This document shows, one piece after another, positions 1-23,592 of a DNA stretch of 27,293 nucleotides. The notes under the pieces were generated by a model. It saw only the letters and a program-made list of their open reading frames with translations. It was not told the DNA's origin and did no database searches. A program made the translations under genes and the position numbers. The stretch comes from a virus (taxonomy: Duplodnaviria > Caudoviricetes): IMG/VR virus record IMGVR_UViG_3300031922_000065, positions 1 through 27,293 of that record; one strand, 5' to 3'. Position 1 is the first letter of the stretch, and each line of letters opens with the position of its first letter.

Positions 1-11
1 TAGGCGCGAAA

Positions 12-48
12 ACATTATTTGCGACACGTGCGCACATTATTTGCGACA
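12..48. repeat. Two 15-bp direct repeats ACATTATTTGCGACA (12-26, 34-48), putative transposase-binding sites of the phage right end
   Basis: Exact repeats with 22-bp period, located beyond the last phage gene; function inferred from Mu end architecture. Confidence 0.65.
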
Positions 49-69: not shown

Positions 70-1122
70 TTACGCATCGCCTTTGAAGGAAAACGAGCCA
101 AGCAGCTTCTTCCTCAGGCCGTAGGTTTCTGCGTGGCTGGCGTGGGCCACCCATGACGTGATGGACTGCCGGACCTTTTCCAGGCTCACCTTGCCGGCCG
201 CGTACTGTTTCTGCAAGCGGCGCAGCGTCTTGGTGATTCTGGATATGGAGCTTTTGCGCAGCCGCCGGTGGGTTGGCCAAATTCTGTAGCCTAGAAAGTC
301 CACCGCGCGGCCAAAGCGCTCGCCCACTGGGAAAACTTGGGTTTTGGCGTTCGTTTTTAGACGCAAGCGATCCCACAAAAACCGCTCTATGGCGGCGCGA
401 ATCTTGTGCAGGTGCGCCTTGTCGTGATGGACCACCAGGAAGTCATCCATGTAGCGGATGTAGTGCTTTTCTCGAAGGCCGTGCTTTACAAATTCGTCCA
501 GCTCATGCAGATAGACGTTGGCAAAAAGCTGGGAGCTCAGGTTGCCGATGGGCAGCCCAACAGGGGCCGGATCGCCAGCAATGGCGGTCGAGTCGATGAT
601 GCCGTCAATCAGTTCCAAGGTGCGCCGACAGCGTATTCTTCGGCGCACCAACTGCTTCATTATGGCATGGTCAATGCTATAAAAAAACTTGGAGATGTCT
701 GCCTTTAGCACGAAAACTTGGCCGTGCTCACGTCTGACCTTGCGCACCATTGCCTGAGCACAGTCTGCCCCGAGGTGCGTGCCCTTGTCGGCTCGGCAGG
801 CGTAGCTGTCATGAATAAACCGCCGCTCCCAAATGGGCTCGATGACGGCGTTTAGGGCGTGCTGCAGAACCCGATCCCGAAAAGGCAGCGCGGCTACGGT
901 GCGCTCCTTGGGCTCGGTCACAATGAAGCGCCGGTATTCGCCAGTCTTGTAGGTGCCCCAAATTAGCTCGTTTTGCATCTGAATCAGGTTCCCCTCCAAG
1001 TCCAGATCAAAGCGCTGAACTTCGGCCCGGTCTCGCTTGCCGCGCCGGGCGCGCAGGTAAGCGGCGTGCAGGCTCTCGAAGCTGTAGATTTCTTGGTGCA
1101 GGTTGTTGTAGGTCTTTGCCAT
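70..1122 (-). CDS. DGR reverse transcriptase (about 350 aa; likely start MAKTYNNL at 1122)
   Basis: PKER...ALPFRDRV, LKADISKFF, GLPIGNLSSQLFANVYL (DGR-type SQ motif), YIRYMDDF catalytic motif, DFLGY; no maturase/endonuclease extension. Confidence 0.97.
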   Translation of the reverse strand: MAKTYNNLHQEIYSFESLHAAYLRARRGKRDRAEVQRFDLDLEGNLIQMQNELIWGTYKTGEYRRFIVTEPKERTVAALPFRDRVLQHALNAVIEPIWERRFIHDSYACRADKGTHLGADCAQAMVRKVRREHGQVFVLKADISKFFYSIDHAIMKQLVRRRIRCRRTLELIDGIIDSTAIAGDPAPVGLPIGNLSSQLFANVYLHELDEFVKHGLREKHYIRYMDDFLVVHHDKAHLHKIRAAIERFLWDRLRLKTNAKTQVFPVGERFGRAVDFLGYRIWPTHRRLRKSSISRITKTLRRLQKQYAAGKVSLEKVRQSITSWVAHASHAETYGLRKKLLGSFSFKGDA

Positions 1123-1290
1123 CTTTGACCCAGAAGGGCGGCGACGCCGAACGGTTGCCTTTCGGTTACTGGAACGGCGTCGCCTGTTCAATTTTCCGGC
1201 TTTGGTTTCCCTTGGCCGAGGAATGCGCATCCTTTTGAAGGTGTGCTGCCGTCAGGCCGCTTGGGCCTGCCGTTTCTGACTTTCCTCAAG
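1123..1290 (-). ncRNA. DGR RNA spacer between TR and RT, with stem-loops
   Basis: Perfect 10-bp inverted repeat ggcgacgccg (1140-1149)/cggcgtcgcc (1175-1184) and caggcc (1253-1258)/ggcctg (1264-1269); position equals the Sp region of BPP-1 DGR RNA. Confidence 0.6.
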
Positions 1291-1406
1291 AGCGGGGCGA
1301 GACCCGATGTTCCAGTTGGCGTTGGAGCGGGCGTTGTTCAGGTTGAGCGCAAAGACGCCGCTGCCCGCACCGTTGTTCCAGTTGCCGCCACGGATCGGGA
1401 GCCGTT
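1291..1406 (-). repeat. DGR template repeat (TR)
   Basis: 116-bp ungapped match to 1882-1997; rich in AAC triplets in the target reading frame (RLPIRGGNWNNGAGSGVFALNLNNARSNANWNIGSRPA); begins right after the avd stop. Confidence 0.97.
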
Positions 1407-1811
1407 TCAACGCGCACCCCTTGTATCGCCGTCACCGGCAATTGATTTGACCCATCCGCCGACCATGCGGCCGATTTCGTCGTTAAGCCTGGCCCAGTGC
1501 TCGTATTTCTTAAAGTCGAGATGCCCCATGCTCTTTGCCATTCGCACCTGGGAGCGCAAGAGATCGATTTCCGCGTCCAAGTCTTGTAGCGTGGTCTTCT
1601 TGTGGTAGCGTTTGTTGCAGACCACAATCAGCCGCAAAATGGCCCACATGGTGCACCGGATTTCAGCGCCCAGCACATGCCTTTCGAGCTTCGGAAACTG
1701 CCGGACCGCAATGTGTCCGTACTCGATCATCGCCTCACATTTCTGGCGGATGAGCAAGTCGCTGCTGGGCCGGAGCCCGGTGGTGGTGGTTTCATTCATC
1801 TGAGCATACAC
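1407..1811 (-). CDS. avd: DGR accessory variability determinant Avd (start GTG 1811 or ATG 1799)
   Basis: Basic ~130-aa helical protein with QFPKLERHVLGAEIR, LDAEIDLLR, EIGRMVGGW motifs; lies between target gene and TR. Confidence 0.93.
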   Translation of the reverse strand: MYAQMNETTTTGLRPSSDLLIRQKCEAMIEYGHIAVRQFPKLERHVLGAEIRCTMWAILRLIVVCNKRYHKKTTLQDLDAEIDLLRSQVRMAKSMGHLDFKKYEHWARLNDEIGRMVGGWVKSIAGDGDTRGAR

Positions 1812-1825
1812 GTATTGCGGTCACA

Positions 1826-1847
1826 GGGGCGGGCTATCGCCCACCCC
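1826..1847 (-). promoter_or_regulatory. DGR target-recognition hairpin/cruciform downstream of VR
   Basis: Minus strand GGGGTGGGC-GATA-GCCCGCCCC: 9-bp GC-rich stem (one G.T) with a GRNA-type tetraloop, about 22 nt past the target stop. Confidence 0.8.
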
Positions 1848-1869
1848 AACAGATTGCACACTGCAGATT

Positions 1870-2967
1870 TCAGGGCACAAAAGCGGGGCGAGACCCGAGG
1901 TGCCAGTTGGCGTGGGAGCGGGCGATGCCCAGGAGGAGCGCAAAGACGCCGCCGCCCGCACCGTTGTCCCAGGTGCCGCCACGGACCGGGAGCCGTTCGC
2001 CGGCTGGGTCGACCCAGAACCCGTCTGCACCCAGGCCGCTGCCAGCGATTGGGAATAGCGCGTGGCTGCGAAGCACCGCCAGGGCGGCGGCAGCAACTGG
2101 TGTTGCGCCAGGGTTGGTCATGCCCTCAAAACTAGCGCCACTGGCTCGCACCAGCGTGTGATTGGCGGTTCCGCTGGCTGCATAGCGCACCGAGTTGGGC
2201 GTGGTGGGGGTGTAGTCGGCGCCCGCAATTGATCCGGTGAAGGTGGGCTGAATCAATGCGCCGGTGTTGCCGTCGATGGCGCGCCAATGGCCGGATGTTG
2301 GGCCAAGGTCGGCCACGGAGAACAGGGCGCTGTTGTTGTTTTCGATGAGCTGGATTTCGCCGCCAACTACGCGCATTCCGGGCGTCCACTCCCAAACATT
2401 GCCGCTCAGGTCGGAGATGCCGCTGTGCGCATTGTTGTGCCGCCAAGCGGCCGGGCCGGAGCCGGTCAGGGTGCGCCCCGCGCCCGAGGCAAGGCCTGGC
2501 GCAAGCCCGTCCACCCTGCGCCCGGTTTCCCAGCCGGAATCGGATGACGCGCCCCACGCGGTGTTGCCGCGCGGGAGGTGGCCGTTGCGCCAGCACCAAA
2601 GCGCCAGCGCGGCCCATTCGACGTTTGATGTCAGGTGCCAGCCAGGGCCGCTGGCGCGCCCCAGCGCCGCAAACGCATCGTGATTGAGCGAGTGCGCCGG
2701 ATCGACTCCGGGCAGGCTGAGCAACTCGCCGTTCCTGATCGAGCCTTGATAGGTGCCAATGAAGACCTCTGGCCTGGCAATGCCGTTGACGACAAATGCA
2801 GGATGGATGCCCGTGCCCAGGCTTGGGTCGATGCTTTGCAGGGTGAACTGGGGCACCACGCTCATATAGCTGGGCTGGCCTTTGGCGGTGTAGAGCACGG
2901 TGACTGCGCCGCCGGTGGCCGCCTCTACCGATGCGCGCAGGTCGTCTCTGACAAAAATCGTGGTCAT
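1870..2967 (-). CDS. DGR target protein, Mtd-like receptor-binding protein with C-type lectin (FGE-like) fold, 365 aa
   Basis: Start MTTIFVRDD with AAGGAG RBS; GISDLSGNVWEW and RGGxW...GSRPAF motifs; VR at the 3' end; follows tail-fibre genes. Confidence 0.92.
   Translation of the reverse strand: MTTIFVRDDLRASVEAATGGAVTVLYTAKGQPSYMSVVPQFTLQSIDPSLGTGIHPAFVVNGIARPEVFIGTYQGSIRNGELLSLPGVDPAHSLNHDAFAALGRASGPGWHLTSNVEWAALALWCWRNGHLPRGNTAWGASSDSGWETGRRVDGLAPGLASGAGRTLTGSGPAAWRHNNAHSGISDLSGNVWEWTPGMRVVGGEIQLIENNNSALFSVADLGPTSGHWRAIDGNTGALIQPTFTGSIAGADYTPTTPNSVRYAASGTANHTLVRASGASFEGMTNPGATPVAAAALAVLRSHALFPIAGSGLGADGFWVDPAGERLPVRGGTWDNGAGGGVFALLLGIARSHANWHLGSRPAFVP
1882..1997 (-). repeat. DGR variable repeat (VR)
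   Basis: 12 mismatches to TR, all at TR adenines; encodes the C-terminal RLPVRGGTWDNGAGGGVFALLLGIARSHANWHLGSRPA. Confidence 0.97.
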
Positions 2968-2986
2968 GTGTTTGCTCCTTGGGTGG

Positions 2987-3337
2987 TTAAATGCTCGGCC
3001 ACAGCGTGACCAAAATCCTGCGCGGGTCGAGCGGCAGGGCTCGAATGGATGGACTGCTCTCCATGCCGGTTGCGCCTGGCGCTTGATTGCCTGGCGCTTG
3101 ATTGCCTGGTGCGTCCTGGACTGCCTCGTGCTCCTGCGCAGGGATTTGGATTTGAGCCAAATAGGCTCCGGTGTCGCCCTCGACTGCCTGGCCGTCTTTG
3201 AGCCGGATTTCCACCGTGATTGCGTGGCTGCGCTGGCGCTCGGCGCAGTCGATGACCACACCCGCTACGGCGATGGTGGTGCCAGATACCGAGAAATCGG
3301 CCACGGGCTGGCCGGGTTGCATGAGAATGATGCGCAT
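2987..3337 (-). CDS. Hypothetical 116-aa protein, possible tail-fibre adaptor/assembly protein
   Basis: GGAG RBS upstream, fills the gap between fibre gene and DGR target in the same operon. Confidence 0.7.
   Translation of the reverse strand: MRIILMQPGQPVADFSVSGTTIAVAGVVIDCAERQRSHAITVEIRLKDGQAVEGDTGAYLAQIQIPAQEHEAVQDAPGNQAPGNQAPGATGMESSPSIRALPLDPRRILVTLWPSI
3074..3109. repeat. 15-bp tandem repeat GCCTGGCGCTTGATT (about 2.4 copies), in-frame PGNQA repeat
   Basis: Read directly from sequence. Confidence 0.85.
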
Positions 3338-3349
3338 GATGGGATCTCC

Positions 3350-4279
3350 TTACTGGTTGAGTTTGACGACGGAATAGCGCACGCTGACATCGTCGGCCGC
3401 TGAGGCCAGCCGCACGGTGAAGCCGTTGGCGGCGCGTGACGATACGATCAGGCTGGCTGCATCGCACGGCGCTCCGGCGGAGGCGATGACATCGAGTTGG
3501 ATTTGGTAATCCTGGCCGGAGAGCTGCTTGATTGGCAGCGTGATTTGGGCTGCGCTATCCAGGATCTGCGGGAATGCAGCTTCTATGCGGCGCAGGCTGG
3601 TGAGCGGCACGTGGGTTAGGTGGGGGTCGGTCGCATCGGTTGAGCCCGCCGGAATGGCGAGGCTGTAAATGGGGATCGCGCCCTGCGGCACCGCCGAACC
3701 TATCGGCGTGACGGCCATGCGCCACAGCCCCCCCGAGTCTTGATGAAGGAAGGCTGTGACCACCACGCTGCCCGCTCCGGTGTTGCTGGGCACGGATGCG
3801 GCGTTGTTGCCATCGGCGACCGCAAAAATCCGGCCTTGCGCAAAGCAGCGCCCACCCGAGATGTGCAGGTTTCTGGCCGCCGTGACGGACTTTGTGACCA
3901 CGCAGCCCTCGACTACGCCACGGTTGCTGAGGGTGAATTCGCCCTGCTGCTGCGCCTGCTCGCGCAGTGCGCGCACGCCGTAGTTGGCCAGGGCCGCCTG
4001 GTTGAGGGCGAATTTGAGCGCGGCGTGGCTGGCGTTTTGCATCTCGGGCCCCAGCGCCTGCGCCGATGCCTCTACAGAGCTTAGGCGCGCCACCAGGCCG
4101 CCGTGCCCGAGCCCTGCGGCATCAACCTGATCGGCGCGCAGCTTCAGCCATGCGGTGCGGTTGGCCAGTTGCACCGCCTGGGTGTTGGCGATGCCATTGG
4201 GGCCGCCCAGCACCGGGTCGGTGGTTTTGATTTGATAGACGCCCGGTTCCCAGACGGGGGCTTCTGTGACGTTTGCCAT
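3350..4279 (-). CDS. Tail fibre-like protein (309 aa)
   Basis: N-terminal WEPGVYQIKTTDPVLGG...QLANRTAWLK resembles the baseplate-attachment segment of myovirus fibres; AAGGAG RBS; position after baseplate genes. Confidence 0.75.
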   Translation of the reverse strand: MANVTEAPVWEPGVYQIKTTDPVLGGPNGIANTQAVQLANRTAWLKLRADQVDAAGLGHGGLVARLSSVEASAQALGPEMQNASHAALKFALNQAALANYGVRALREQAQQQGEFTLSNRGVVEGCVVTKSVTAARNLHISGGRCFAQGRIFAVADGNNAASVPSNTGAGSVVVTAFLHQDSGGLWRMAVTPIGSAVPQGAIPIYSLAIPAGSTDATDPHLTHVPLTSLRRIEAAFPQILDSAAQITLPIKQLSGQDYQIQLDVIASAGAPCDAASLIVSSRAANGFTVRLASAADDVSVRYSVVKLNQ

Positions 4280-4288: not shown

Positions 4289-4726
4289 TTAAAAAATGAT
4301 GGTCCAGGCTCCAGACAGGGACAAGTCCGAGTCCTTTTGGATGGGGGCGCGCACTCTGCGCGAAAACAGGGTGCCATCGGCGCAAATCAGGCCGAACTCG
4401 GTGATGGTCAGGCCGTTGGCCTCGGCGGTGGACAGGCCCCAGTGGAAGCGGACCTGACCGATGGCCGGGTAGTCCACTGAGGTGACTGGCCGGATGTGGG
4501 CCGCGCTGAGGGCGCTGCTGGTGGGCGTGGCGGCTGCGGTGCCGCTGCCAAAGCCGATCTGGGTGATGTGCCGGTTGGTGCCGCTGCCGCCCACGAGCCG
4601 GGCCAGTTGCTGCCTGGCGCCGTTGACGATGAGGTTCTTTTCCTCAAAGACCTCGACCAGCACGCCGTGGCGGCGCAGCTCTAGCAAAAAATCGCCACGC
4701 ATGGCTTGCACGTCTTTGAATTTCAT
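4289..4726 (-). CDS. Tail collar/fibre-attachment-like protein (145 aa)
   Basis: NLIVNGAR...EANGLTITEFGL...GTLFSRRV pattern; position between gpI-like and fibre genes. Confidence 0.65.
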   Translation of the reverse strand: MKFKDVQAMRGDFLLELRRHGVLVEVFEEKNLIVNGARQQLARLVGGSGTNRHITQIGFGSGTAAATPTSSALSAAHIRPVTSVDYPAIGQVRFHWGLSTAEANGLTITEFGLICADGTLFSRRVRAPIQKDSDLSLSGAWTIIF

Positions 4727-5751
4727 CAGGCCTCCAGGTGGGTGATCACATCGCCCGCATAGGGGATGTTGCCGAAATAGGTGAAGCCGCCCGCGTAGGC
4801 GCGTGCGCCGTCGTGGCGGTGGGCGGCAAAGGCGTGCCGACCGTCGTAGCGCCGGTGGCGTGTGAGGGTGATGGGAATGGGCGGGTCTTGCGCCACAGGG
4901 GCGGTTGCGCCGAAGTCCAGCCAGCCGCCGTAGTCGCCAAAGCCGTCAAAAAGGCTGCCGCGCGACTGCACGTCGGTGAGTTGCAGCAGCCCGGCCATGT
5001 CGTCGGCTTCGCGTTCGGAGTCAAACCGGGTGCCTGCGGCGGTGAAGCCGGAGTAGTCTGCCTCGCCCCCAAATGCAAATGCGCCCTCGTGGGTGCGCAG
5101 CAGGCCCTGGTTGTAAGCCAGGCTGCCGTCGTAGCGATGCCGACCCCACCGGTGCTCATCTTCGCCCACCAGCACGGCCGCCGCCGTGGCCACCTCGCTG
5201 CTGGGGGCCATGTCGGCGGCGCTGGCGCGGTACTGGATGTCCACCAGGTGGCTGCGCACCGGCTTCCACTCGTTGATGGCATCGATGAGGCGCGCGGTGC
5301 CTTGTGCGTCGATCGGCCGCCCGTCGCTGAGGTTGGCCGCTACCCGGAACTGGGCCCAGGTGTGGGCGCTGTAGCGGTCCGCCCCGGTGTGGCTGATGCT
5401 GCCGTCGTAGCGCGTGACAGGCAGGCGTTCTTCGATCTCTATGCTATCCACAGCGCCCGCCAGCCGGAGCGCTTCACGCACGGCCCAGGGCGTGCCTTTT
5501 TTGCGGTGCAGGGCGATGGAGCGCTGGATCAGGCTGCGGCGCTGGGCGTCGCTGAGTGCCAGATCCCAGCCTTCGAGGGCGCTGAGGTTGAACTGCTGCG
5601 CCAACTCGGGCAGGTTGTGCGCCGGGGTGGTGTCGATGAGGTAGGTGAGCAGGCCGTCGAGCGGCAGCGCGCTGATGCGCTCGCTGGCGCTGGCCAGGGC
5701 GGCAAAGCGCGCGTCGGTGGCGAGCAAGTCGGGCGTGAGGGCACTAGCCAT
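4726..5751 (-). CDS. Phage tail/baseplate protein, P2 gpI family, with C-terminal YDG-motif repeats
   Basis: LPELAQQF...SIALHRKKGTPWAVREAL and INEWKPVRSHL motifs; follows baseplate J. Confidence 0.85.
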   Translation of the reverse strand: MASALTPDLLATDARFAALASASERISALPLDGLLTYLIDTTPAHNLPELAQQFNLSALEGWDLALSDAQRRSLIQRSIALHRKKGTPWAVREALRLAGAVDSIEIEERLPVTRYDGSISHTGADRYSAHTWAQFRVAANLSDGRPIDAQGTARLIDAINEWKPVRSHLVDIQYRASAADMAPSSEVATAAAVLVGEDEHRWGRHRYDGSLAYNQGLLRTHEGAFAFGGEADYSGFTAAGTRFDSEREADDMAGLLQLTDVQSRGSLFDGFGDYGGWLDFGATAPVAQDPPIPITLTRHRRYDGRHAFAAHRHDGARAYAGGFTYFGNIPYAGDVITHLEA

Positions 5752-6556
5752 CGCTGACCCCGGCGAGCGTGAGCGTGATCGCGCTGCAATGCGCCCAGCC
5801 CTGCGGCGGCACGGCCAGCACGGCGGCGGGCTGGTCGAGCTCGACCCGGTACACGCCCGGCACCGAGAGGGCTGCCACGATTTGCGAGGGCACGATGTCG
5901 CGCCCCAAAAGGGCTTGCTTTTGCGCCGCGTAGGCGGCGGCGGCGGCGCGGGCCGAGTCCATCACAGCGGCGCTGGGCTGATCGCGGTACAGCGTCAGGC
6001 GCGCGGCGATGGCGTAGGGCAGCGCCAGCGGCGCCTGCACCTGCACCAGATCGGTCAGGGGCCGCACGTCGTCGGCCGAGCAGGCGGCCTGCACGAGCGC
6101 CAGGATTTCGGGGCTGGGCAGGCCGGTGGCGGTGAGCGGGTGCAGCCGCACCAGCCCCGGCTCGGGCGAGAGCACGGCCACATCGACGATGCTGGCGTGC
6201 GCGCTCATGGCGTGGTGCCGGTAGGCGCCCACGGGGCCTGCCACGGAGTAGGCCTCGGGGCTGGACTGGATGCGCTGGCGCAGCCGCTCGTCGCCCTCGC
6301 CCGCCAGGCGGGTGACGCCCATCAGCTCGCCCAGATAGTCGAGCATGGGGGCGCGCGCGAATCGCACCAGATTCTGGCGCGCAGCGTCGTTGATGGCGGC
6401 GCGCAGCAGGGTTTCGCGGTATGCGATGAGGTCGATCAGCAGGTGTTCGATCTGCGCCGGGTGCAGAGTTTTGCCCGTGGCGGCCTGGTACTGCGCAATC
6501 AGCTCGGCCGTGATGGCGGCCGGGCTGTTGGGGATGATGTCGTGCAGGGCGCTCAT
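5744..6556 (-). CDS. Baseplate J/gp47 family protein
   Basis: AYRETLLR, YSVAGPVGAY, VRPLTDLV motifs; synteny W-J-I. Confidence 0.9.
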   Translation of the reverse strand: MSALHDIIPNSPAAITAELIAQYQAATGKTLHPAQIEHLLIDLIAYRETLLRAAINDAARQNLVRFARAPMLDYLGELMGVTRLAGEGDERLRQRIQSSPEAYSVAGPVGAYRHHAMSAHASIVDVAVLSPEPGLVRLHPLTATGLPSPEILALVQAACSADDVRPLTDLVQVQAPLALPYAIAARLTLYRDQPSAAVMDSARAAAAAYAAQKQALLGRDIVPSQIVAALSVPGVYRVELDQPAAVLAVPPQGWAHCSAITLTLAGVSDG

Positions 6557-6561
6557 GGGGC

Positions 6562-6945
6562 CTAGGTGGGCTGGATCACGGCTGTGATCTCTACGCCGTC
6601 GGCGGCGATCAGGCCGACCGTGAGCAAGATGTGGGCCGGGTTGTCGCCGGCGCGATCGACTTGCACGCGGGTGATCTGCGCACGCGGCTCCCAGCGCCGG
6701 ATGGCGGCGACGGTCTCGCGCACGATGTGCGGGCGGGCGCGCTCCAGCGGCCAGTCGAGGTAGTGGCTCAGGCGCGAGCCGAAGTTTGGGCGCAGCGGGT
6801 CGGAGCCGAGCCGCGTTTGCAGGATGACGCGCACCGCCTGGCGCAGATCATCGTAGCTGCGCACAAAGCCATCGGCGTCGCCCGTGGTGCCCAAAGCGGG
6901 CTGCCAGTGCAGGTGCAACGGAAGGGGGGTAGTGGGCGCGCTCAT
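6562..6945 (-). CDS. Baseplate wedge GPW/gp25 family protein
   Basis: ILQTRLGSDPLRPNFGS and AIRRWEPR motifs. Confidence 0.9.
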   Translation of the reverse strand: MSAPTTPLPLHLHWQPALGTTGDADGFVRSYDDLRQAVRVILQTRLGSDPLRPNFGSRLSHYLDWPLERARPHIVRETVAAIRRWEPRAQITRVQVDRAGDNPAHILLTVGLIAADGVEITAVIQPT

Positions 6946-6953
6946 TGCCGGTG

Positions 6954-6997
6954 AGTGTGCGCGTGCGCCCCTTGGCCGTGCAGCTTGAAGCGCTTCA
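6954..6997 (-). promoter_or_regulatory. Putative activator-dependent late promoter (baseplate/fibre operon)
   Basis: Palindrome TGAAGCGCTTCA 6986-6997, -10-like CACACT 6959-6954, ATG at 6945. Confidence 0.75.
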
Positions 6998-7019
6998 GGC
7001 CAGCCGGCCCTGGCCAGCT

Positions 7020-7310
7020 TTAACCGGCAAAGACGTTGGCGCTGCCGCTGGCGGCGCTGGAGCCGCAGCTTACCGCGTCACCCACGCGCCCGGCGGCGCG
7101 GCCGTTGATGAACACGCTGGCGCTACCAGCGCCCAGGCTGCCGCCGTGGCACTCGGGGATCGCCGGGCAGCAGTGTACGGCCCAGCCGTCGCCCAGGCGG
7201 TGCCAGCCGCGGCCGTTGACGAACACACTGGCGCTGGCAGCGGTGTTGGGGCGCGACGGCCAACAGCCGTGCCCGGTGCAGGTGTCGCCGAGGCGGCTTG
7301 CGGCTGGCAT
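7020..7310 (-). CDS. PAAR domain spike-tip protein
   Basis: MPAASRLGD...H, VFVNG, GRAAGRVGD...CGS...GSANVFAG; directly after the gpV spike gene. Confidence 0.92.
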   Translation of the reverse strand: MPAASRLGDTCTGHGCWPSRPNTAASASVFVNGRGWHRLGDGWAVHCCPAIPECHGGSLGAGSASVFINGRAAGRVGDAVSCGSSAASGSANVFAG

Positions 7311-7314
7311 GGCG

Positions 7315-7752
7315 CTAGTTTAGGTCAATGCGCGGCGCACGCAGCGCTATGTGCGTGCTGGAGACGATTTCTACATCGCCCACACACTGGATGCTGAGCC
7401 GGTGCGCAGCGCGATCGTAGTCGATGGTGGTGCCGTCGGCAAAGCGCACGCGGTGATGATCGGCCGATGCGACCGGCGGCGCGTCGCGCTGGCTGTAGAG
7501 GGCGCCGAGCACGCAGCCGGTTTCGCCCCGGCGGTCGAGCAGCAGCGCCACGTGCTCACCCACATCCGGCAGGTGCCAGTGCTGGTCGAGGTGCGTCTTG
7601 CTGTGCAGCACGGGCAGCCAGTGGGTGTGCAGGTCGTCGAGGTCGGGCAGGCGCACGCGCACGCGGCCGTGCGTCGCATCCAATGCGACCACGAAGCCAA
7701 AGCGCAGGGTGACGGCGGACTCGGCGAAGGTGTCGGGGGCGGGGTCAAACAT
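7315..7752 (-). CDS. Baseplate assembly protein V (spike)
   Basis: RVRVRLPDLD...WLPVL, LPDVGEHV, FADGTTIDYDR; likely start MFDP overlapping the gpD stop. Confidence 0.9.
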   Translation of the reverse strand: MFDPAPDTFAESAVTLRFGFVVALDATHGRVRVRLPDLDDLHTHWLPVLHSKTHLDQHWHLPDVGEHVALLLDRRGETGCVLGALYSQRDAPPVASADHHRVRFADGTTIDYDRAAHRLSIQCVGDVEIVSSTHIALRAPRIDLN

Positions 7753-8776
7753 GGGCGATTTTGCGCAGTTGCAGCGCACAGGTGTAGCCCGACTGGGCGA
7801 TTTCGTGGCGCGCTTGCACGATCACGTAGCGCCCGTCGATGCGCCCCAGGCCCTCGATGGACAGCGCCAGTCCGGCGGCCATGCGCGGGTCGCCAGGCAG
7901 ACTGACCTCGAGGCTGGTTTGGTCGAGCGCGCGCCGATCCATTTCGGCCTGAGCCAGGGCCTGGGCCTGCTCGGCGCTGCTGGCGCGGGTGTGCAGGTGC
8001 CGGATGTCGGCGGCGGTGGCGTCGGTGGGGGCGCTGGCGCTGGCGGCGCTGGCGCTGGCGCTGTGCACCTGGGCGCGGTGCGGGTCGTGGTGGCGCACGC
8101 TGGCCTGCGCGGGCACGGCCACGATCTGGTCGCGGTAGCTCCAGCTGGTGATGTCGGATGGCCGAAGTGTGCGCAGCGCGGGCCCGGCATCGGCCAGCCG
8201 CTGCACGCCCATAACCGTGTTGTTTTGCGTGAGCTTGATGACGTAGCCGTATTCGCGCGCCAGCCGCGCAGCGAACTGCCAGAGGGTTTCTTGGTACTGC
8301 GTCACGCGCTCGATGGCCGGGTCGGGCTCGATGCGGCCCTCCAGCCTCGCCCCTACGCTGGCCGCCACCTGCTCCAAAATGGCGCGCAGGCTGGTGTCTT
8401 CGAAGGCGCGCGCCAGGCGGGTGCGCACCATGCGCGAGACGCCGGTGGCCTGGGCCCGCAGCCGCACCACCAGCGGCGGCGCACCGATCTCGATCTCATC
8501 GACCTCAAAGGCCCCGGCTGGCACCAGCGCCTGGTGCGCCCAGCCAAAGCGCGCCTCGATCTCCATGCCTTTGTCGGGGTACCAGTCGGCCAGCCAGCGC
8601 GAGGCGTCGGCCTGCGGTTGCCCCAGCTCCAGCTCGAGCGTGTCGGCCTCGCCGCTCATGCGGTCGGTGAAGGTGAAGCGGCTGAGGTAGGGCGCCAAGT
8701 CGGCGCTGATGTCGCGCCCGTTGTAGCGCACCTCGACCCTTGCGGCCAAGGCGCGGGCGCGCAGATCTTCAGCCAC
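7745..8776 (-). CDS. Late control D family / baseplate hub protein
   Basis: YNGRDISADL, FTDRMSGEADTLEL, FEVDEIE, GDPRMAAG...GRYVI. Confidence 0.88.
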   Translation of the reverse strand: MAEDLRARALAARVEVRYNGRDISADLAPYLSRFTFTDRMSGEADTLELELGQPQADASRWLADWYPDKGMEIEARFGWAHQALVPAGAFEVDEIEIGAPPLVVRLRAQATGVSRMVRTRLARAFEDTSLRAILEQVAASVGARLEGRIEPDPAIERVTQYQETLWQFAARLAREYGYVIKLTQNNTVMGVQRLADAGPALRTLRPSDITSWSYRDQIVAVPAQASVRHHDPHRAQVHSASASAASASAPTDATAADIRHLHTRASSAEQAQALAQAEMDRRALDQTSLEVSLPGDPRMAAGLALSIEGLGRIDGRYVIVQARHEIAQSGYTCALQLRKIAHV

Positions 8777-8987
8777 GGCTGCGCCTCCACGGCGGCAGCG
8801 CGTCGGTGCGGGAGGCTTGGGCGATCAAGGGCACGCGCAGGCGCAGCCCGGCGGGCAGCAGCGGCGTGGCGCTGGCGTGCGGATTGGCGGCCAGCAAGGC
8901 GGGCACGTGCCGCACATCGCGGTAGTAGCGCCAGGCGATTGTGTCCCAGCGCTCGCCGTCGCTGGTGGTGTGCATCAGGTAGGCCAC
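8769..8987 (-). CDS. Tail protein X (LysM-like), 72 aa
   Basis: GTG start with AGGAG RBS; GERWDTIAWRYY...LLAANP...LPAGLRLRVP...LPPWR. Confidence 0.88.
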   Translation of the reverse strand: MAYLMHTTSDGERWDTIAWRYYRDVRHVPALLAANPHASATPLLPAGLRLRVPLIAQASRTDALPPWRRSRG

Positions 8988-9883
8988 AGCCGGGGCTCCT
9001 TCAAGATGGCGGTATGCGCCAGCCGTGCCAGCGCATCGCGCGACTGATCCCCGGCTCGCACGGCCATTTGGGCGTGCAGCATGGCACCGCTTAGGCCGTC
9101 GAGCCCCGCGCCGAGTGCATTGGCGCTGCGCTCTAGGTGGGTGCGCGCGCCGCCAAGCGCCGCAGCCGCTGCGGTGGCGCTGCTGGCCACGTGCTGAATC
9201 GATCGCAGCGCAGTCAGCCCCTCGACCGGGAGCGCCTGGGCGGCTGCGGCGAGCGATGCCGCTGCACCAGGCAGCAGCAGCAGCGCCGCCGGGCCGGATT
9301 GTTGCGCCAGGCTGGCCAGGCTTTGCACCTGGGATGCGACACGGCCCACCTGCCCCACCGCAGCCAGCGCACCGGACACGGCCGCACCCACGGCCGCCAC
9401 CGGGCCGCCGAAGCTGCCCAGCGGGACTTCGGCGTCGCCCACGGCGGCAATGGGGATGCGCAGACCGGCCTGGATGACGCCTGGCGGCAGCGGCTCGGCG
9501 GAGTCGCCGATGTATTCGCGCAGCTTGATGCGCAGCTCCAGCGCCAGCAGCGCGCCCACGCCGTCGGTCTGGCGCGTGCTCAGGTCCATGGACTCGATCA
9601 CAAACACGCCGCGGTATTCGCCGGTGCCCAGCACAAAGGCCAACGGGCGGGTGGCGTCCATGGCGGCCTTGAGCTTGGCCACCTCTTGCGCCGGGTTGCA
9701 CCAGGCAGCGTGCAGGCTGGCCGTGATCTCGATTTCGTCGGGAGCGAAGCCGGTGTGCTGGAGCAGCGCCTTGCGCCCGATCAGGCCCTGCTCGGCGTAC
9801 TGCGCGCCAAAGCGCGCCTCCATGCCGCCCATCCAGGTGATGATCTCCAGCTCGATCTCGTCGAGCACTGCGTATAGGCTCAT
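8975..9883 (-). CDS. P2 GpU family tail protein with Ala-rich C-terminal extension
   Basis: Start MSLYAVLD overlaps tape measure stop; YAEQGLIGRKALLQHTG, GEYRGVFVI, LREY. Confidence 0.85.
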   Translation of the reverse strand: MSLYAVLDEIELEIITWMGGMEARFGAQYAEQGLIGRKALLQHTGFAPDEIEITASLHAAWCNPAQEVAKLKAAMDATRPLAFVLGTGEYRGVFVIESMDLSTRQTDGVGALLALELRIKLREYIGDSAEPLPPGVIQAGLRIPIAAVGDAEVPLGSFGGPVAAVGAAVSGALAAVGQVGRVASQVQSLASLAQQSGPAALLLLPGAAASLAAAAQALPVEGLTALRSIQHVASSATAAAAALGGARTHLERSANALGAGLDGLSGAMLHAQMAVRAGDQSRDALARLAHTAILKEPRLWPT

Positions 9884-12570
9884 GGGCTGATCCTGGCGCG
9901 CTCGCTTTGGTAGCGGCGCATGAGGCGCTCGAACTCGTCGAAACTCACGCGCATGGCGGCTTGCACCTCTTGGCTCACACCCGCCGGCGCGCCGGCGCCC
10001 ACGTGGATCACGGGGGCAAAGTGAATCTGTGTCGCAGATGCCGGTGCGGCTGCCGCCCTGGGCGCTGCGGCCGGCAGCTTGGCCTCTGGGAGGGCTGGGG
10101 CCGCAGCGGGCAGCAGCGCCTGGCGGATAGATTGCACCGCCTCGGGCAGCACCGGCGCAGCGGGCAGCAGCGGGGCGGCCATGGCAGCCGTGGAGCCGAG
10201 CGCCACCGTAGCGGCGGCGGCCATGCCGGCGGCGGCCTTGGTCACCGCATCCAGCCGGGCCCCCATGCCCAGCGCCAGCCCCTCGGAAAGATTTCCGCCC
10301 AACTCGGCAAACACCCGCGAGGGTGAGCGGATGCCCAAAAAGCCTTTGAGCCGGTCGCGCACGGCGGCCCCCAGCTCGGCCACGGCCTGCCCGGCGGCGG
10401 CCATCTTTTGCCGGATGCCTTGGATCAGCCCGGCCACAATCTGACCACCAATGGCCAGCATCTGCCCCGGCAGCGCCCGCAGCATGCCCGGAATACCTAG
10501 CACCGCGCGCACCACAGTGGCTATGCCGTTGCCCACTCGCACACCAAACGCCTCTGCTGCTCCACCCGTATCCTCCACGGGCTTGATCAGGGCGCGAAAC
10601 CAGCCGCCCACGCGCGACAGCAGGCTGCCGATGGGCGCGAGCAGCGGCACCACCGGCGCGAAGGCGGCCCGCACCGACTGCGCTATCGGGGCCAGCCCGG
10701 CCACCAGCCCGCTCCACAGCCCCCGGAAGAAGCCGGCAATCGGCCCCCAGAATTTGTAAACCAGCAGCGCGGCGGCGGTGAGCGCCAGCCCGATCGGGTT
10801 CATGAGCGCGAGGCGACCTACCATCATGATCGCCCGGCCCAGCCCCCTAATTACTCCGCCCAGCCTCATGACGGCCGCACCGGCCCGCCCGCTGCTGGCC
10901 GCCACCGCCTGCATCGGCGCAGCCCCCGCCAGCATCGCGGCACGCCCGATGGCCGCGCGCGCCGCCAGCGACTGCCATGCCAACCCCAAGGAGTTGAGGG
11001 GCGATAGCACCAGGAAGTTGACCGCCCAGCCAACCGCCAAGGCGCCGAGCTTGAATGCCGTCACGCCCAGCACCACGCCTGCCAGCAACCGGATCAATTC
11101 CGGGTTGGCTTGCGCCCACTGGCTGATACCCAGAGCGATAGGCGTGAGCGCCTGCGCCAAAGAGAGTGCGGCCGGCAACAAAGCTTCGCCGATGCTGATC
11201 GCCATATCCTGCAACTGGATGCGCAGCCGCTTGAGTTGCTCGGCCGGTGACTCCTCGCGCCGAGCAAAATCTGCGTCCAGGGTTAGGGTGCCCTCGGCGT
11301 TGCGGCCGCTGGCGGTCTGCGCACGAATGCGGCCGAGCTGGTCGCGGTTTTGCAGCTCTGCCAGCAGGTAGCTGGTGGCCTGCATATCCTGGAACACCTG
11401 CCCCAGGCCCGCCCGCTGGCCTAGGGCCTCGATCATGCCCCGGCGCCGCTGCATCTCTGTGGCGCGCTCGGCCGGGTCTTTGATCGCCGCGATTTCGTTC
11501 GAGAGCGCCTGCAACTCCTGCGCCACAGCGGGGGTCTGCTGGCCGATGCGCTCCATGATCATGCCCACCGCACCCTCGATCGGGTCCAGCCCCTGGCGCG
11601 CCAGGCCCAGCATGCGGCCCTGGAGGTCGATTCCCAGGCGCTCGAAATCCTTGGCTGTATCGGGGCTGGTGAGTTTGGTGAGGAAGTTGCGAAAGTTGTT
11701 GGCGGCTTCGTCGGTGCTGCCTGCTGTGGCCATGGCAATTTGCAGGCGCGAAGCCATGTTGACCACGGCCTCGTTGCCCACCACGCCGATGGCCTTCATT
11801 TGCCCACCCAGCGCCGGGAACCAGCGCGCCATATCGCGCACCTCAAAACTGCCCAGCTTGCCCGCAGTGGCAGCCTGCGAGAACGCCAGCTCCATATCTT
11901 GCGCCGACACGCCCAGCACATCAAAGGAGACCATCATGCGCGCCGCATCATCCAGGCTGGCGCGGCTGGCGGTGGTGAACCGCCCCAGTAAGGCGGCCTG
12001 GTCGGCGGCTTTTTTGGTCTCCATGCCGTTGGCGATCAGCAGCGCGGTACCGCGCGCCACTTCGCTTGCCGTCTGATTTACGCTCAGGGCCACGCCGCGC
12101 AGCGTCACACCCAGACGGGCTTGCTCATCGCGGGTGAGGTCGCCCACGATGGCCAGATCGTTCATGACATCGCCGAAGTTGACCGCCTCGCGCATCGCCG
12201 CCAACACCGGCGCCCCCACGGCGGCAGCGGTTGCCGTCGCGCCCATGAGGTCACCGCCAATTTGCTCGCGCCCCTGCGCCAGCTGGTCGCGCCGATCCAT
12301 ACTGCGCTGCATCGCCTGGTGCCGGTTCTGCACGTTGGTGATGGCGCTGCCGAGCTCGTCGTAGCGCCGCCGCAGGTCGCCCAGCGCGCGCTGGGGGTGT
12401 TGCAGCGCCTGCGCCATCACGCGCCCGAGCCGCTCCTGGCGCGATTGCAGTACGTCGCCGGCGCGCGTTAGTCCGTCTAGCGAGCCCTTGGTGCTGGCCA
12501 GTGCCGCGCCGACTGCCGCTGTGCCCAGCGCGCCCAGCCTGATGCTAAAAAGGATGTCAGATGCAGCCAT
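9880..12570 (-). CDS. Tail tape measure protein (896 aa)
   Basis: Long Ala/Gly-rich helical protein, GKLGSFEVRDMA, EAANNFRNFL, NPIGL; follows tail chaperones. Confidence 0.93.
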   Translation of the reverse strand: MAASDILFSIRLGALGTAAVGAALASTKGSLDGLTRAGDVLQSRQERLGRVMAQALQHPQRALGDLRRRYDELGSAITNVQNRHQAMQRSMDRRDQLAQGREQIGGDLMGATATAAAVGAPVLAAMREAVNFGDVMNDLAIVGDLTRDEQARLGVTLRGVALSVNQTASEVARGTALLIANGMETKKAADQAALLGRFTTASRASLDDAARMMVSFDVLGVSAQDMELAFSQAATAGKLGSFEVRDMARWFPALGGQMKAIGVVGNEAVVNMASRLQIAMATAGSTDEAANNFRNFLTKLTSPDTAKDFERLGIDLQGRMLGLARQGLDPIEGAVGMIMERIGQQTPAVAQELQALSNEIAAIKDPAERATEMQRRRGMIEALGQRAGLGQVFQDMQATSYLLAELQNRDQLGRIRAQTASGRNAEGTLTLDADFARREESPAEQLKRLRIQLQDMAISIGEALLPAALSLAQALTPIALGISQWAQANPELIRLLAGVVLGVTAFKLGALAVGWAVNFLVLSPLNSLGLAWQSLAARAAIGRAAMLAGAAPMQAVAASSGRAGAAVMRLGGVIRGLGRAIMMVGRLALMNPIGLALTAAALLVYKFWGPIAGFFRGLWSGLVAGLAPIAQSVRAAFAPVVPLLAPIGSLLSRVGGWFRALIKPVEDTGGAAEAFGVRVGNGIATVVRAVLGIPGMLRALPGQMLAIGGQIVAGLIQGIRQKMAAAGQAVAELGAAVRDRLKGFLGIRSPSRVFAELGGNLSEGLALGMGARLDAVTKAAAGMAAAATVALGSTAAMAAPLLPAAPVLPEAVQSIRQALLPAAAPALPEAKLPAAAPRAAAAPASATQIHFAPVIHVGAGAPAGVSQEVQAAMRVSFDEFERLMRRYQSERARISP

Positions 12571-12633
12571 CGGAGTCGGTCGTTGTGGTCGTTGCCATTG
12601 CCCTGCCTTTTTTGATCATCCCTGCGCTGGCCC

Positions 12634-12796
12634 TCATGCTCTGGCCTCATCCTTGATCTGCTGCTGCGCCAGCTCTAGCCAGCGCACAAAGTCGGCCACC
12701 TCCAGCGCATCGATCTCCGACGGCTGGAAGCGAAACCAGCGCGCCAGCAGCGCCGCGCCTTGCCAGAGCGGCTCAGGCTTTATCCAGCATGGCGCG
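12634..12796 (-). CDS. GpE'-like tail chaperone extension, probably expressed by frameshift from the upstream chaperone
   Basis: LARWFRFQPSEIDALEVADFVRW matches the P2 GpE-family pattern; no ATG/GTG/TTG start nearby in frame. Confidence 0.75.
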
Positions 12797-13027
12797 AAAG
12801 GAGTCTGCCAGCACCCGATAGTCCGACAAGTCCAGCTCCTCCAGGTCTTCGGGCGTGACGCCGCACAGCAGCGCCAGCAGCGCCAGCTCTTGCTCCTCGG
12901 CCTTGTCGCTGCGCCGCTGCGCCTCTTTGAGGTCGCGCACCTTGGCGCGGCGCATGGCCAGCTTGGTGAGCGTCTGGCCACTGGCCAGCTTGACCGGGTG
13001 CGCCAGCGTGATTTGTTTGGGTTCCAT
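12773..13027 (-). CDS. Tail assembly chaperone (GpE/gp41-like)
   Basis: ITLAHPV...MRRAKVRDL...EDLEELDLSDY; between tube and tape measure; GGAGG RBS. Confidence 0.88.
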   Translation of the reverse strand: MEPKQITLAHPVKLASGQTLTKLAMRRAKVRDLKEAQRRSDKAEEQELALLALLCGVTPEDLEELDLSDYRVLADSFRAMLDKA

Positions 13028-13031
13028 GCGA

Positions 13032-13553
13032 TCAGCCTCCGATGTTGGCGCTGTACTGGGCCAGCAGATCGACCCCGCCGGCCTTGTAGATGTTTTCCAG
13101 CACGTCGATCTCGGTCACGTCCTGGCCGTCCACCGTGAGCTTCATGTAGTAGGCGATGAAGTCGGTTTCGAGCTCGACGTTCTCGTGTTGTTTGAACACG
13201 CCGCCGGGCAGGCTGGTGAACACCACCGACAGCAGCGCCACCACCGGGGCCTCGCGCGAGACGCTGCCGCCCAGGATGATGGGCATGGAGCCGCGCACCT
13301 GAAGCTGCACCGCCTTGAACGGGTTGGCCACCTTCTTGAGCACGTCGGCGTAGTAGCTGGACCAGCGCACCTTGCCCTCGAGCTTCTCGAAGCCCGCAAA
13401 AGCCTCGATGGTGCCGACCATGCCCAGCGCCTTGTGCTCGGTCATTTTGACCTTGACCTGTGGCAGGTCGATCGAGTCGGCGCGCCCGAGCAGCGACTGC
13501 CCGTCGAGGTAGATGTTGGCGTTGGTGATGCGGTGAATTTGGATTTTTGCCAT
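13032..13553 (-). CDS. Major tail tube protein (P2 FII family)
   Basis: NANIYLDG..LLGRA, EHKALGMVG, EIDVLENIYKAGGVD; follows sheath. Confidence 0.92.
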   Translation of the reverse strand: MAKIQIHRITNANIYLDGQSLLGRADSIDLPQVKVKMTEHKALGMVGTIEAFAGFEKLEGKVRWSSYYADVLKKVANPFKAVQLQVRGSMPIILGGSVSREAPVVALLSVVFTSLPGGVFKQHENVELETDFIAYYMKLTVDGQDVTEIDVLENIYKAGGVDLLAQYSANIGG

Positions 13554-13568
13554 GATGCGTTCCCCTGG

Positions 13569-14804
13569 TTACTGCTGGCCGCCCAAGCCGCGCAGCAGCT
13601 CGATGTCGATGAAGCTCTCGAAGCTGATGCGCTCGGCGGGCGTAGGCGGCATGAAGCTGATGTCGAAAGTGATGTGCCCCAGCGCCACCTGGGTGGGCGG
13701 GTTCTTGGCCGGGTCGTAGGTGCAGGCGCCGTCGATGAGTGCGCCGCGCCCGATCAGGGTGCGGATGAAGCCGTTGACCGAGCCCTTGATGTCGTCAATC
13801 AGCGCGTCGTTGATCGGGCGGTCGATGAACTGCAGCATCGAGTGCTCGACCGACTCGTGCAGCACGTCAGCAGTGCGGCGCACATTGATGAAGTTGCGCG
13901 GGTGCGTCACCGTAGGCCAGGCCGCACTGCGGTTGCCCCAGGCCCGAAAGCCGGTGCCAAAGCTGTTGAACACCGTCACGATGCCCACCTCGTTGAGCAG
14001 GTTGGCTTCGCTAAAGGGGTCGTTGATGCGTGCGGTAATGGCGCGCTCGCTGCCCACGATGCCGCGCAGCTCCTGGTTCGAAGGCGACCACCAGTAGCCG
14101 CGCTCGATGTCGGTGGCGCTCATCAGGCCCGCCAGGCGCGGGCTCATCGGCTCCAGCCGCTCGGCATCCAGGCGCGGGTCATAGACCTTGAGGTGCGGGT
14201 AGCACAGAATGGCGCGCTCGCTGGAGGTCTGGAAGTTGATCGAGCCGCCGGGGCCGCGCCCGCTCAGGGCCTGCGGCACCGTCACCCCGGCCGGGGCGTC
14301 GATCAGGGCCATGGCGCGCAGCCGGTGCGCCAGCGCAATCAGCTCGGTGGTCACGCTGGTGAGCGTGGCGTAGCCGGGCGCGATCAAAATCTTGGCGTTG
14401 AAGCCAAACAAGTTGAATGCGTCTTCGACGGCGCGCAGCCCGGTGCGCACCCCGGCCGCATCGACACCGCCAATGATGTGGCTGGGCGCAATCGGCGTGC
14501 GCCCGGCCTGCGCGGTCACGGTGTGCAGCGCCGGGTTAAAAACGTTGACCACGATCACCGTGGCGGCACCGTAGTCCATGATGGCATCCAGCGCCTGCGG
14601 GATGGTGTGTCCGGCCGAGTCTGGCGCGCCAATGCTGCCAAACTGGGCCGCGTCGCGCTCCGAGAGCACCAGCGTGGGGGTGTTGACGGGGCCGCTGGGC
14701 GCGGTGCCGATCAGGGCGATGACGGCGGTCTTGACGGTGCGAATCGGGCGCGGGCCGCGGTCGATCTCGATGGTCTCGACGCCGTGTAAAAAGTTGGCTG
14801 CCAT
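13569..14804 (-). CDS. Contractile tail sheath protein
   Basis: FLHGVETIE, GYWWSPSN, GFRAWGNR, FINVRRT, PPTPAERI. Confidence 0.95.
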   Translation of the reverse strand: MAANFLHGVETIEIDRGPRPIRTVKTAVIALIGTAPSGPVNTPTLVLSERDAAQFGSIGAPDSAGHTIPQALDAIMDYGAATVIVVNVFNPALHTVTAQAGRTPIAPSHIIGGVDAAGVRTGLRAVEDAFNLFGFNAKILIAPGYATLTSVTTELIALAHRLRAMALIDAPAGVTVPQALSGRGPGGSINFQTSSERAILCYPHLKVYDPRLDAERLEPMSPRLAGLMSATDIERGYWWSPSNQELRGIVGSERAITARINDPFSEANLLNEVGIVTVFNSFGTGFRAWGNRSAAWPTVTHPRNFINVRRTADVLHESVEHSMLQFIDRPINDALIDDIKGSVNGFIRTLIGRGALIDGACTYDPAKNPPTQVALGHITFDISFMPPTPAERISFESFIDIELLRGLGGQQ

Positions 14805-15023: not shown

Positions 15024-15476
15024 TCAGGTTCCTTCAAAAATGGCTTGGACCAAAAGCGGCCCGCCTTCGTACTCCAGATCAGGGATCAGCGGCAAGGTGC
15101 TGGCCCAGCGCGTCAGCAGCGTCCAGGCCTCGCCCTCGCCCTCTTGCACCCGCGCATCGAGCAGGCGCAGCGGCGTAGCCCCCAGCGCCAGCCGCTGCGA
15201 ATGCAGGGCACGCCGGGTGGCCTCGAACAAGTCCCAGACCCCGGCCCCGTCGCGCAGCGAGCGTGCAAACAGCGCCACCTCGAGCGTCAGGCGCACCTCT
15301 TGCACGGCGGCCCCCACGTCGTCGGGGTCGCTGGCGCTCAGGTCGCTGGCCAGCACCACCGCCGCCCCTTTGGCGTGTGTGAAGCGGTAGCCGCGCGCGG
15401 GCAGCGCATCCACTGGCAGCGGCTGCAGCGCAGCGCGCAGGCGCTCGACAGCAGCGCGTTCGAGTTGCAAAATCAT
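15024..15476 (-). CDS. Gp37-like tail completion/terminator protein
   Basis: YRFTHAKGAAVV and RSLRDGAG pattern; position after gp36. Confidence 0.72.
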   Translation of the reverse strand: MILQLERAAVERLRAALQPLPVDALPARGYRFTHAKGAAVVLASDLSASDPDDVGAAVQEVRLTLEVALFARSLRDGAGVWDLFEATRRALHSQRLALGATPLRLLDARVQEGEGEAWTLLTRWASTLPLIPDLEYEGGPLLVQAIFEGT

Positions 15477-15477
15477 G

Positions 15478-16205: not shown

Positions 16206-16233
16206 GGCTAAGGCCTAGTTTGGCGGCGGGGCA

Positions 16234-17148: not shown

Positions 17149-17154
17149 TTGGGT

Positions 17155-18096: not shown

Positions 18097-18103
18097 GGGC
18101 CAC

Positions 18104-23585: not shown

Positions 23586-23592
23586 CACGCAC

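Follow-up and report, generated by a model that had tools for sequence, protein, structure and literature searches.

The viral record IMGVR_UViG_3300031922_000065 (Duplodnaviria; Caudoviricetes), analysed here over its whole length of 27,293 bp and referred to as the window, is classed as linear and 67% complete, and all of its genes are encoded on the minus strand. At one end, positions 70-4279 hold a diversity-generating retroelement (DGR) in which a tail-fibre gene is followed by a small open reading frame (ORF), the DGR target gene, avd, a template repeat (TR) and a reverse transcriptase (RT) gene (Table 1); these parts, named in a preliminary description of the sequence, were all confirmed there on the minus strand. 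We consider it very probable that an active DGR of the BPP-1 type here lies exactly at the right end of a phage that has a Mu-type head and a P2-type contractile tail and is likely transposable, and that the DGR diversifies a likely receptor binder.

Table 1. Features of the window
Position	Strand	Feature	Support
1..47	-	Right terminus: two direct boxes GTCGCAAATAAT (36-47 and 14-25; likely transposase-binding sites), then 13 nt to base 1
70..1230	-	DGR reverse transcriptase; YMDD and PIGNLSSQ motifs	PF00078; phrog_1423 E=3e-146
1123..1286	-	TR-RT spacer with predicted RNA hairpins, likely part of template RNA
1287..1406	-	Template repeat (TR), IMH* at 3' end
1407..1799	-	avd, 130 aa; alternative GTG start 1811	PF22296, NF033474
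1826..1847	-	GC-rich DNA hairpin, 9-bp stem with one T-G pair, loop GATA (fits 5'GRNA3')
1870..2967	-	DGR target gene, 365 aa	TaqVP homologue; phrog_2889
1878..1997	-	Variable repeat (VR) with IMH, target codons 324-364
2987..3337	-	116-aa beta protein; candidate adaptor or chaperone; kept between fibre and target genes
3350..4279	-	Short tail-fibre protein, 309 aa: P2 gpH-like N-terminus, coiled coil (30-109), beta-sandwich, fibre-tip-like domain
4289..4726	-	145-aa ORF, between P2 gpI-like gene and fibre gene
4289..14804	-	BcepMu/P2-type contractile tail module: 145-aa ORF, gpI, gpJ, gpW, PAAR, gpV, gpD, gpX, tape measure, chaperone, tube, sheath
within 15024..26606	-	Mu-type neck/head/packaging: gp37, gp36, gpT, gpI protease, gpG, gpF, portal, TerL, gp27
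within 15024..26606	-	Lysis and regulatory genes: lysozyme, Mor/C, GemA

The DGR cassette and its natural variation

The RT is of the DGR type with an intact YxDD motif, and its nearest phage matches are DGR RTs; GxxxSQ is a DGR RT signature. The longest RT ORF encodes 386 aa, and the likely start is the ATG at 1122 (350 aa), where most homologue matches begin. Avd scores 107 bits against PF22296 (E=6.5e-31; cut-off 40) and 111 bits against NF033474 (cut-off 80). The TR and the variable repeat (VR) are mismatched at 13 of 120 positions, 12 of them TR adenines (23 adenines in 120; hypergeometric P=1.5e-9), and the sole other mismatch, at position 1881, falls in the IMH (initiation of mutagenic homing). 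Twelve TR codons are variable (nine AAC, two ATC and one AGC), corresponding to ~2.5e12 possible proteins and no stop codons. Folding of the TR-RT spacer gave z=-2.08, with equal stability in 6 of 200 shuffles, and its template-RNA role is our assumption from BPP-1. The DNA hairpin, located 22 nt past the target stop codon, has a modest folding score (z=-1.78, equal stability in 11 of 200 shuffles) and agrees with the DGR hairpin consensus of a 7-10 bp stem and a GRNA loop (PMC3240598). An RT, an Avd, an adenine-biased TR/VR pair with the VR at the 3' end of a gene, IMH and IMH* and the GRNA hairpin are all present, and RT, TR, avd and target are intact. In the related records L177-L180 and L191, an apparent second Avd-like ORF, read by eye, directly follows the RT.

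The VR varies in nature. Of 18 listed sequencing runs, 15 contain part of the window and four (X1-X4) at least half of it, and these four were compared; X1 and X2 belong to the same study and are both possible source runs, while X3 and X4 come from two other studies, and no RNA runs were among the listed runs holding window sequence. Contigs of X1 are identical to the window. The main contigs of X2 differ from it at 14 of 4,400 bases, all 14 in the VR opposite TR adenines, and the same placement holds for all 15 VR differences listed for X4 and all three listed for X3, the contigs of which leave VR positions 1899-1937 uncovered. Pooled over X2, X3 and X4, 32 of 32 listed VR differences lie opposite TR adenines; X3 and X4 also show scattered differences outside the VR, and no TR differences were among those listed for the main contigs of X2-X4. 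Counting the window allele, 20 of the 23 TR adenine sites were seen varying. Among the differences listed for these three runs, the VR varies at TR-adenine sites and the TR is constant. The DGR is real, complete and active, and is of the BPP-1 type; by analogy with BPP-1, retrohoming would be the cause of the VR variation. X1 and X4 also contain a second DGR cassette, diverged but of the same family (window 1256-1920).

RT and Avd would likely copy the TR, with errors at adenines, into the VR; this rewriting would change 12 surface residues of a TaqVP-like lectin-fold target, for which attachment to the short tail fibre and choice of the host receptor are both likely.

The target protein and its likely place on the virion

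The target matches TaqVP (PDB 5VF4) over its full length (E=8.8e-88, residues 5-364) and carries its VR at the C-terminus, as expected for a C-type lectin fold (CLec) protein of the TaqVP type. TaqVP is a single-domain CLec protein of the formylglycine-generating enzyme (FGE) type from a Thermus aquaticus prophage DGR that has the same gene order, target-avd-TR-RT, and a C-terminal VR (PMC6328139); 12 codons are variable in the window target and nine residues in TaqVP. TaqVP-like targets, 57 in number, are the commonest phage DGR target type (PMC6199706).

The fibre protein N-terminus resembles gpH of BcepMu (49% over 51 aa by tblastn). In the fibre model (58 sequences; predicted local distance difference test score 86), the sandwich domain resembles SPP1 gp22, the A-1(L) fibre or Mtd, and the tip domain resembles tailspike tips and H-type lectins (Z 7.8-8.9, root mean square deviation 1.9-3.0 over 67-87 residues). 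The top matches of the model as a whole are phage fibre, tailspike and receptor-binding protein domains (Z 8.9 for 7eea and 8kec; 6.3 for Mtd). The model of the 116-aa protein encoded between fibre and target genes gave zero PDB fold matches and a single viral model match. Fibre gene, small ORF and target gene recur as a unit across unrelated phages; among 44 target-homologue loci, the fibre gene was matched in 27 and an RT in 28 (counted from the table of these loci). The target is the last gene of the tail operon, and the targets of related phages at the same place are TaqVP-type, Mtd-second-domain or Ig-domain proteins.

Three lines of evidence, i) gene order, ii) co-travel with the fibre gene and iii) the fibre-like folds, point to a likely virion location for the target. 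It is likely a tail-tip protein that picks the host receptor, with a corresponding effect on host range, and we infer from the models a monomeric CLec protein docked on a short trimeric fibre, perhaps via the 116-aa protein. The view of the preliminary description that tropism is switched here by hypermutation is sustained in this form: a complete, active DGR in the slot between baseplate and right end is best read as hypermutating a protein that is likely at the tail tip.

Several observations weigh against this assignment. Foldseek on the fibre model returned nothing at E<=0.001, and the fold matches are moderate; the tip-like domain of the fibre could itself be the receptor binder; TaqVP is monomeric and a ligand for it is not known (PMC6328139), nor is one for the window target; and a literature search found no virion proteomics of this target family. 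In an alternative, the DGR is active, the fibre tip binds the receptor and the target is an accessory adhesin on the virion or a lysogen-expressed protein. We regard this as unlikely: it accommodates the lectin- and tailspike-like fibre domain, the lack in TaqVP of the trimerisation domains of Mtd (PMC6328139), the interpretation of the target of phage Mushu as Hoc-like (PMC5883640) and the second VR of record G004, distant from the tail genes, whereas the terminal position of the target in the tail operon, the joint travel of fibre, small ORF and target through unrelated phages, and the Mtd-domain or Ig-domain targets of related phages in the same position favour a receptor-picking tail-tip protein. 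In G004, one TR is accompanied by two adenine-biased VRs (record ~32,100-32,800 and 1,300-2,800), one of them ~30 kb off among early genes.

The right terminus and probable transposability of the phage

Read from the far end, the window encodes GemA, Mor/C, lysozyme, Mu gp27, TerL, the Mu portal, gpF, gpG, protease, the gpT capsid protein, gp36 and gp37, followed by sheath, tube, tape measure, gpX, gpD, gpV, PAAR, gpW, gpJ and gpI; the contig breaks ~0.7 kb upstream of gemA, ahead of any transposase. By tblastn, Mu head proteins match the window (T 48%, portal 32%), as do all eight BcepMu tail proteins tested, and none of seven Mu sheath, tube and baseplate proteins does; the phage therefore combines a Mu-type head with a P2-type contractile tail, the arrangement of BcepMu and B3. 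Its Mu-type head, packaging, Mor/C and GemA genes make it Mu-like, and it lies outside Muvirus, which is defined by a Mu-type tail, G segment, gin, com and mom.

The putative right end of the preliminary description proved to be an exact phage terminus, upheld by the geometry of its relatives. Two end boxes, GTCGCANNNAAT, are followed by 13 nt ending ...GCCTA, with TA (not CA) at base 1, and the RT stop codon lies 69 bp inside this end. In the relatives, exactly 13 nt, the final two being CA or TA, separate the last box from unrelated DNA (13 loci; 39 distinct junctions); because the window stops after 13 nt ending TA, its base 1 marks the right end. Four groups of records, for example L259/L261, L265/L276 and L287/L158, show one and the same end next to different flanks, and the junction is therefore fixed independently of the motif. 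TA terminates 21 of the 39 junctions and CA the other 18, so that TG...CA termini hold neither for the window nor across its kin; repeated end boxes are present in the window, and varied flanks at many unrelated insertion sites in the kin. Of 401 genomes from one host family, 2 showed the end pattern, and an exact search for the window end in metagenome contigs gave 0 stretches. A second X3 contig has the same box pair (window 14-48), here with a third box, a host-like flank and another 13-nt end, which starts TAGG; it is possibly the left end of this phage. Internal end-box copies in the opposite orientation lie at window 7673-7684 and 20425-20436, and related phages have internal copies in portal, tape-measure and early regions.

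Both flanks were readable in three prophages, all with a 4-bp target repeat and none of 5 or 6 bp (G002 ACGA, G006 TCGG, G156 CCAG). G009 has both ends with a single flank base at the contig edge, which fits neither a 4- nor a 5-bp repeat, and one end is absent in G001, G004, G005, G011, G014 and G264. Over the 39 junctions, flank base 2 is C in 33 and base 3 is G in 33 with no such bias beyond, as expected for an even-length palindromic target; judging solely from its shared end, the window phage would also make a 4-bp duplication. Target duplications are 5 bp in Mu and 6 bp in B3, and TA ends are known in Leptospira prophages and left as an open question elsewhere (PMC8705779); the relatives described here show TA ends outside Leptospira. 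A literature search by phrase, with supplementary files outside its scope, found no 4-bp duplication in transposable phages, and nothing on duplication length was found in PMC5977238. The ends of Sp18 (L315:4971-43726), read as TG...TA a few bases off the record annotation, are flanked by the 4-bp repeat TAAA.

The window phage is very likely transposable. In portal and sheath trees it groups with G001, G005 and G011 (Shimodaira-Hasegawa-like approximate likelihood ratio test 99), two of which, G001 and G011, show collinearity with it over the stretch between Mor and RT, and all three carry a transposase and an AAA ATPase (in G001, phrog_310 E=5e-44 and phrog_296 E=1e-29). Contigs on the G011 transposase have depths of 44.9, 23.1 and 41.8 in X2, X3 and X4, where window contigs have depths of 44-54, 23-24 and 36-37, and carry identical substitutions in all three runs. 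The X2 contig, of 7,388 nt, spans MuB too and is connected, through a joint of matching depth, to a place in Mor at which an exact 17-mer is shared with the window (20-letter side). The nearest kin and the matching-depth contigs in three of the four runs thus place a transposase, by inference, in the missing left third.

Three results count against transposability. Domain and profile searches found no transposase in the 27-kb contig; no transposase piece was among the pieces listed for X1, the deepest run; and an X3 contig joining MuB to gemA, considered as a piece of the window phage, was rejected, as it agrees at 4 of 7 checked bases and belongs to another phage. Owing to the last two, depth matching is not proof. 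An element that is not transposable, such as an integrase-based prophage with Mu-like late genes, would explain the contig without a transposase, the lack of flank past base 1 and the X1 result, and would make the comparison with Mu moot; we consider it very improbable given end boxes and a terminus common to kin at many insertion sites, the presence of Mor and GemA, the transposase and AAA genes of the nearest kin and the matching-depth transposase contigs.

The clade transposase has zero tblastn matches among 50,697 phage records. It is not similar to the MuA (E=0.11), BcepMu or Sp18 types, its alignment with the Tn552-type BcepMu protein being confined to 87 residues (E=0.008). Plasmid proteins of Mesorhizobium match it at 29-37%. 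Membership of the clade in the family of Sp18 was weighed and rejected (Sp18 transposase against that of G001, E>4). The Thermomonas prophages G007 and G008 have close portals and were found without this transposase type and end box pair. With rather less assurance than transposability itself, we lean narrowly towards placing the window phage in an uncultured transposable-phage lineage with its own transposase type, TA/CA termini, a 4-bp N-C-G-N duplication and a right-end slot at which DGR cassettes with several RT lineages and target folds are exchanged. Prophage surveys look for TG...CA ends and 5/6-bp repeats (PMC8705779), and would therefore overlook a lineage that has TA ends and 4-bp repeats and whose transposase is poorly recognised. 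The 4-bp stagger, if true, would offer a natural variant in which to study the setting of target spacing by Mu-family transposases.

The preliminary description further proposed that replicative transposition gives many TR/VR copies per cell. This fits data on phage Mushu, in which VR variability was remarkable after one cycle (PMC5883640), and on hankyphage, in which transposition and DGR signal both rose upon derepression (PMC12135933); the idea does not single out transposition, because any replicating phage amplifies TR and VR. In its boldest form, many chromosomal copies arising by replicative transposition may yield a library of tail variants per induction.

The right-end slot in Mu-like phages

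At the slot between baseplate and right end, Mu carries S, U, U', S', gin, com and mom, and BcepMu one fibre gene and an acyltransferase gene; BcepMu and KS10 lack a G region (PMC2628397). That the window is without gin, com and mom, as the preliminary description had noted, was borne out: Mu Gin, Com, Mom, S and U gave zero tblastn matches in the window, and PF00239 gave none. Its claim that the DGR replaces the Gin/G-segment and mom is not supported as history, given the BcepMu/P2-type tail and the right ends of the relatives. None of the 33 distinct clade right ends mapped (34 rows, one counted twice) matches gin, com, mom, S or U; PF00239 was found in 0 of 10 records against 12 of 14 controls, and no resolvase or Mom among 71 ORFs near ends. 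An RT is present in 15 of the 28 right ends of at least 3.5 kb. Of 17 distinct relatives whose right end has a P2-type tail, 14 carry an RT; the other three have neither DGR nor invertase, two of these retaining a target homologue with no TR. Comparison of related right ends for gin versus DGR, which the description had suggested, thus returned as the alternative state no DGR, never gin: the right-end states seen in the clade are DGR or nothing. L055/L268 and L057 lack avd, TR and RT and have fibre gene, small ORF and target homologue immediately at the right end.

An ancestor with a Mu-like Gin/G-segment and mom at this slot, later displaced by the DGR, is highly improbable in view of these right-end and resolvase counts, the tail type shared with BcepMu and the distribution of RTs among kin with P2-type tails, even though the slot is identical to that of S-U-gin-com-mom in Mu, Sp18 has an invertase, Com and Mom there, and YPCBV-1 combines Mu-type tail genes and a transposase 44% identical to MuA with a DGR at the slot. 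The Sp18 invertase and the YPCBV-1 DGR make an exchange of Gin and DGR possible in the wider Mu family. For the window phage, we favour positional and likely functional analogy: the DGR would fill the slot of the Mu G-segment, and is not a demonstrated replacement, because the pairing is already known and no close relative carries a gene-flipping switch. A literature search, with supplementary files outside its scope, found no comparison of DGR with Gin; invertases and DGRs are both found in fibre hotspots (10.1101/2024.10.15.618418).

The cassette itself appears to be mobile. Window RT and Avd are 80-81% and 85-87% identical to those of L003, L004, L007 and L008, phage fragments with other baseplate genes and without this end, and 38-41% and 32-45% identical to those of G001, G005 and G011. 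In a quick RT tree of 100 rows, a separate clade (100) unites most of the end-bearing kin, and L018 and Bise make up a third. Grouping the window RT with eight kin was rejected by an approximately unbiased test (p=0.0004, 24 rows), the group having been fixed after the first tree was seen, which counts against the strength of this result. DNA similarity to L180 extends over 101-4045 and to G001 over 3579-4636; these ranges meet inside the fibre gene, which suggests a crossover there. By sequence comparison, the avd-RT cassette appears to have come from another phage lineage, and the cassette appears to be an exchangeable module, its stretch from the 3' half of the fibre gene to the RT being nearer to another lineage than to the structural kin. 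Kin carry other RT lineages, other targets or no DGR.

That transposable phages can carry DGRs was stated in the preliminary description; a DGR at the right end of such a phage is already known from YPCBV-1, Vibrio ZX4290, BalMu-1, Mushu and hankyphage (PMC6199706). The closest known system is the induced transposable Pseudomonas prophage Bise (OR683401; PMC11846083), which likewise has a Mu-type head, a transposase and a P2-type contractile tail, followed by the same string of gpI, 145-aa ORF, 309-aa fibre, small ORF, 364-aa target, avd, TR and RT. The respective identities are 49% for gpI, 64% for the 145-aa ORF, 64% for the fibre, 42% for the small ORF, 49% for the target, 36% for avd and 38% for the RT, and 9 of 9 TR/VR mismatches in Bise fall at adenines. 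Unlike the window, Bise has a Dam methylase gene and two ORFs after the RT and a distant RT lineage; its transposase is B3/BcepMu-type. Its DGR is absent from the main text of its paper (PMC11846083). YPCBV-1 (Chromohalobacter, OP380511), a cultured Mu-like phage with a sheath, likewise has a DGR there, with two small ORFs, an FGE-type target, avd and an RT that ends 64 bp from the record end, with 14 of 14 TR/VR mismatches at adenines and no gin or mom annotated; its DGR is reported in print (PMC9769972). It differs in its true Mu-type tail genes, its MuA-type transposase and a target without detectable tblastn similarity. For Mushu (Faecalibacterium; PMC5883640) and hankyphage (Bacteroides; PMC6199706, PMC12135933), DGR activity and replicative transposition have both been shown; they differ in gut hosts of other phyla and other targets, and in hankyphage by 5-bp repeats.

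With the BPP-1 DGR (mtd-avd-TR-brt), the window shares cassette order, adenine-specific rewriting, IMH and IMH*, the GRNA hairpin and an RT 39% identical. BPP-1 Mtd forms a trimer and has prism and sandwich domains of its own, whereas the window has a single-domain CLec target and a sandwich on a separate fibre; BPP-1 is not known to be transposable. Mu shares head and packaging genes, Mor, GemA and, in the slot from baseplate to right end, a host-range module, and differs in having no common tail or baseplate protein by tblastn, in the invertase and mom found in Mu only, and in TG...CA ends with a 5 bp duplication against the TA or CA ends with 4 bp of the window's kin. BcepMu shares the Mu-type head with P2-type tail (sheath 51-65%, tube 49%, gpJ 45-68%) and the lack of a G region, and differs in one long fibre with an acyltransferase at the right end and in its Tn552-type transposase. 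The window DGR is a clean, active instance of a system already known and by itself contributes little; the trio of fibre, small ORF and monomeric CLec protein would matter as the commonest target type, with Bise as a cultured-host model.

Further observations concern other parts of the window. The PAAR gene follows the gpV spike gene (window 7020-7310), an arrangement present in many, not all, kin. The Mu gpF-like protein (window 18824-20191) has a C-terminal PBECR3 nuclease-like domain (PF18812, E=5e-13), and in G002, G014 and G156 the lysis-terminase-portal-gpF-gpG block is inverted relative to the window. Run X3 contains an exact CRISPR spacer match to window 3845-3879, with a likely protospacer adjacent motif AAG at 3843-3845; the repeat flanking this spacer is, we presume from its appearance, type I-E.

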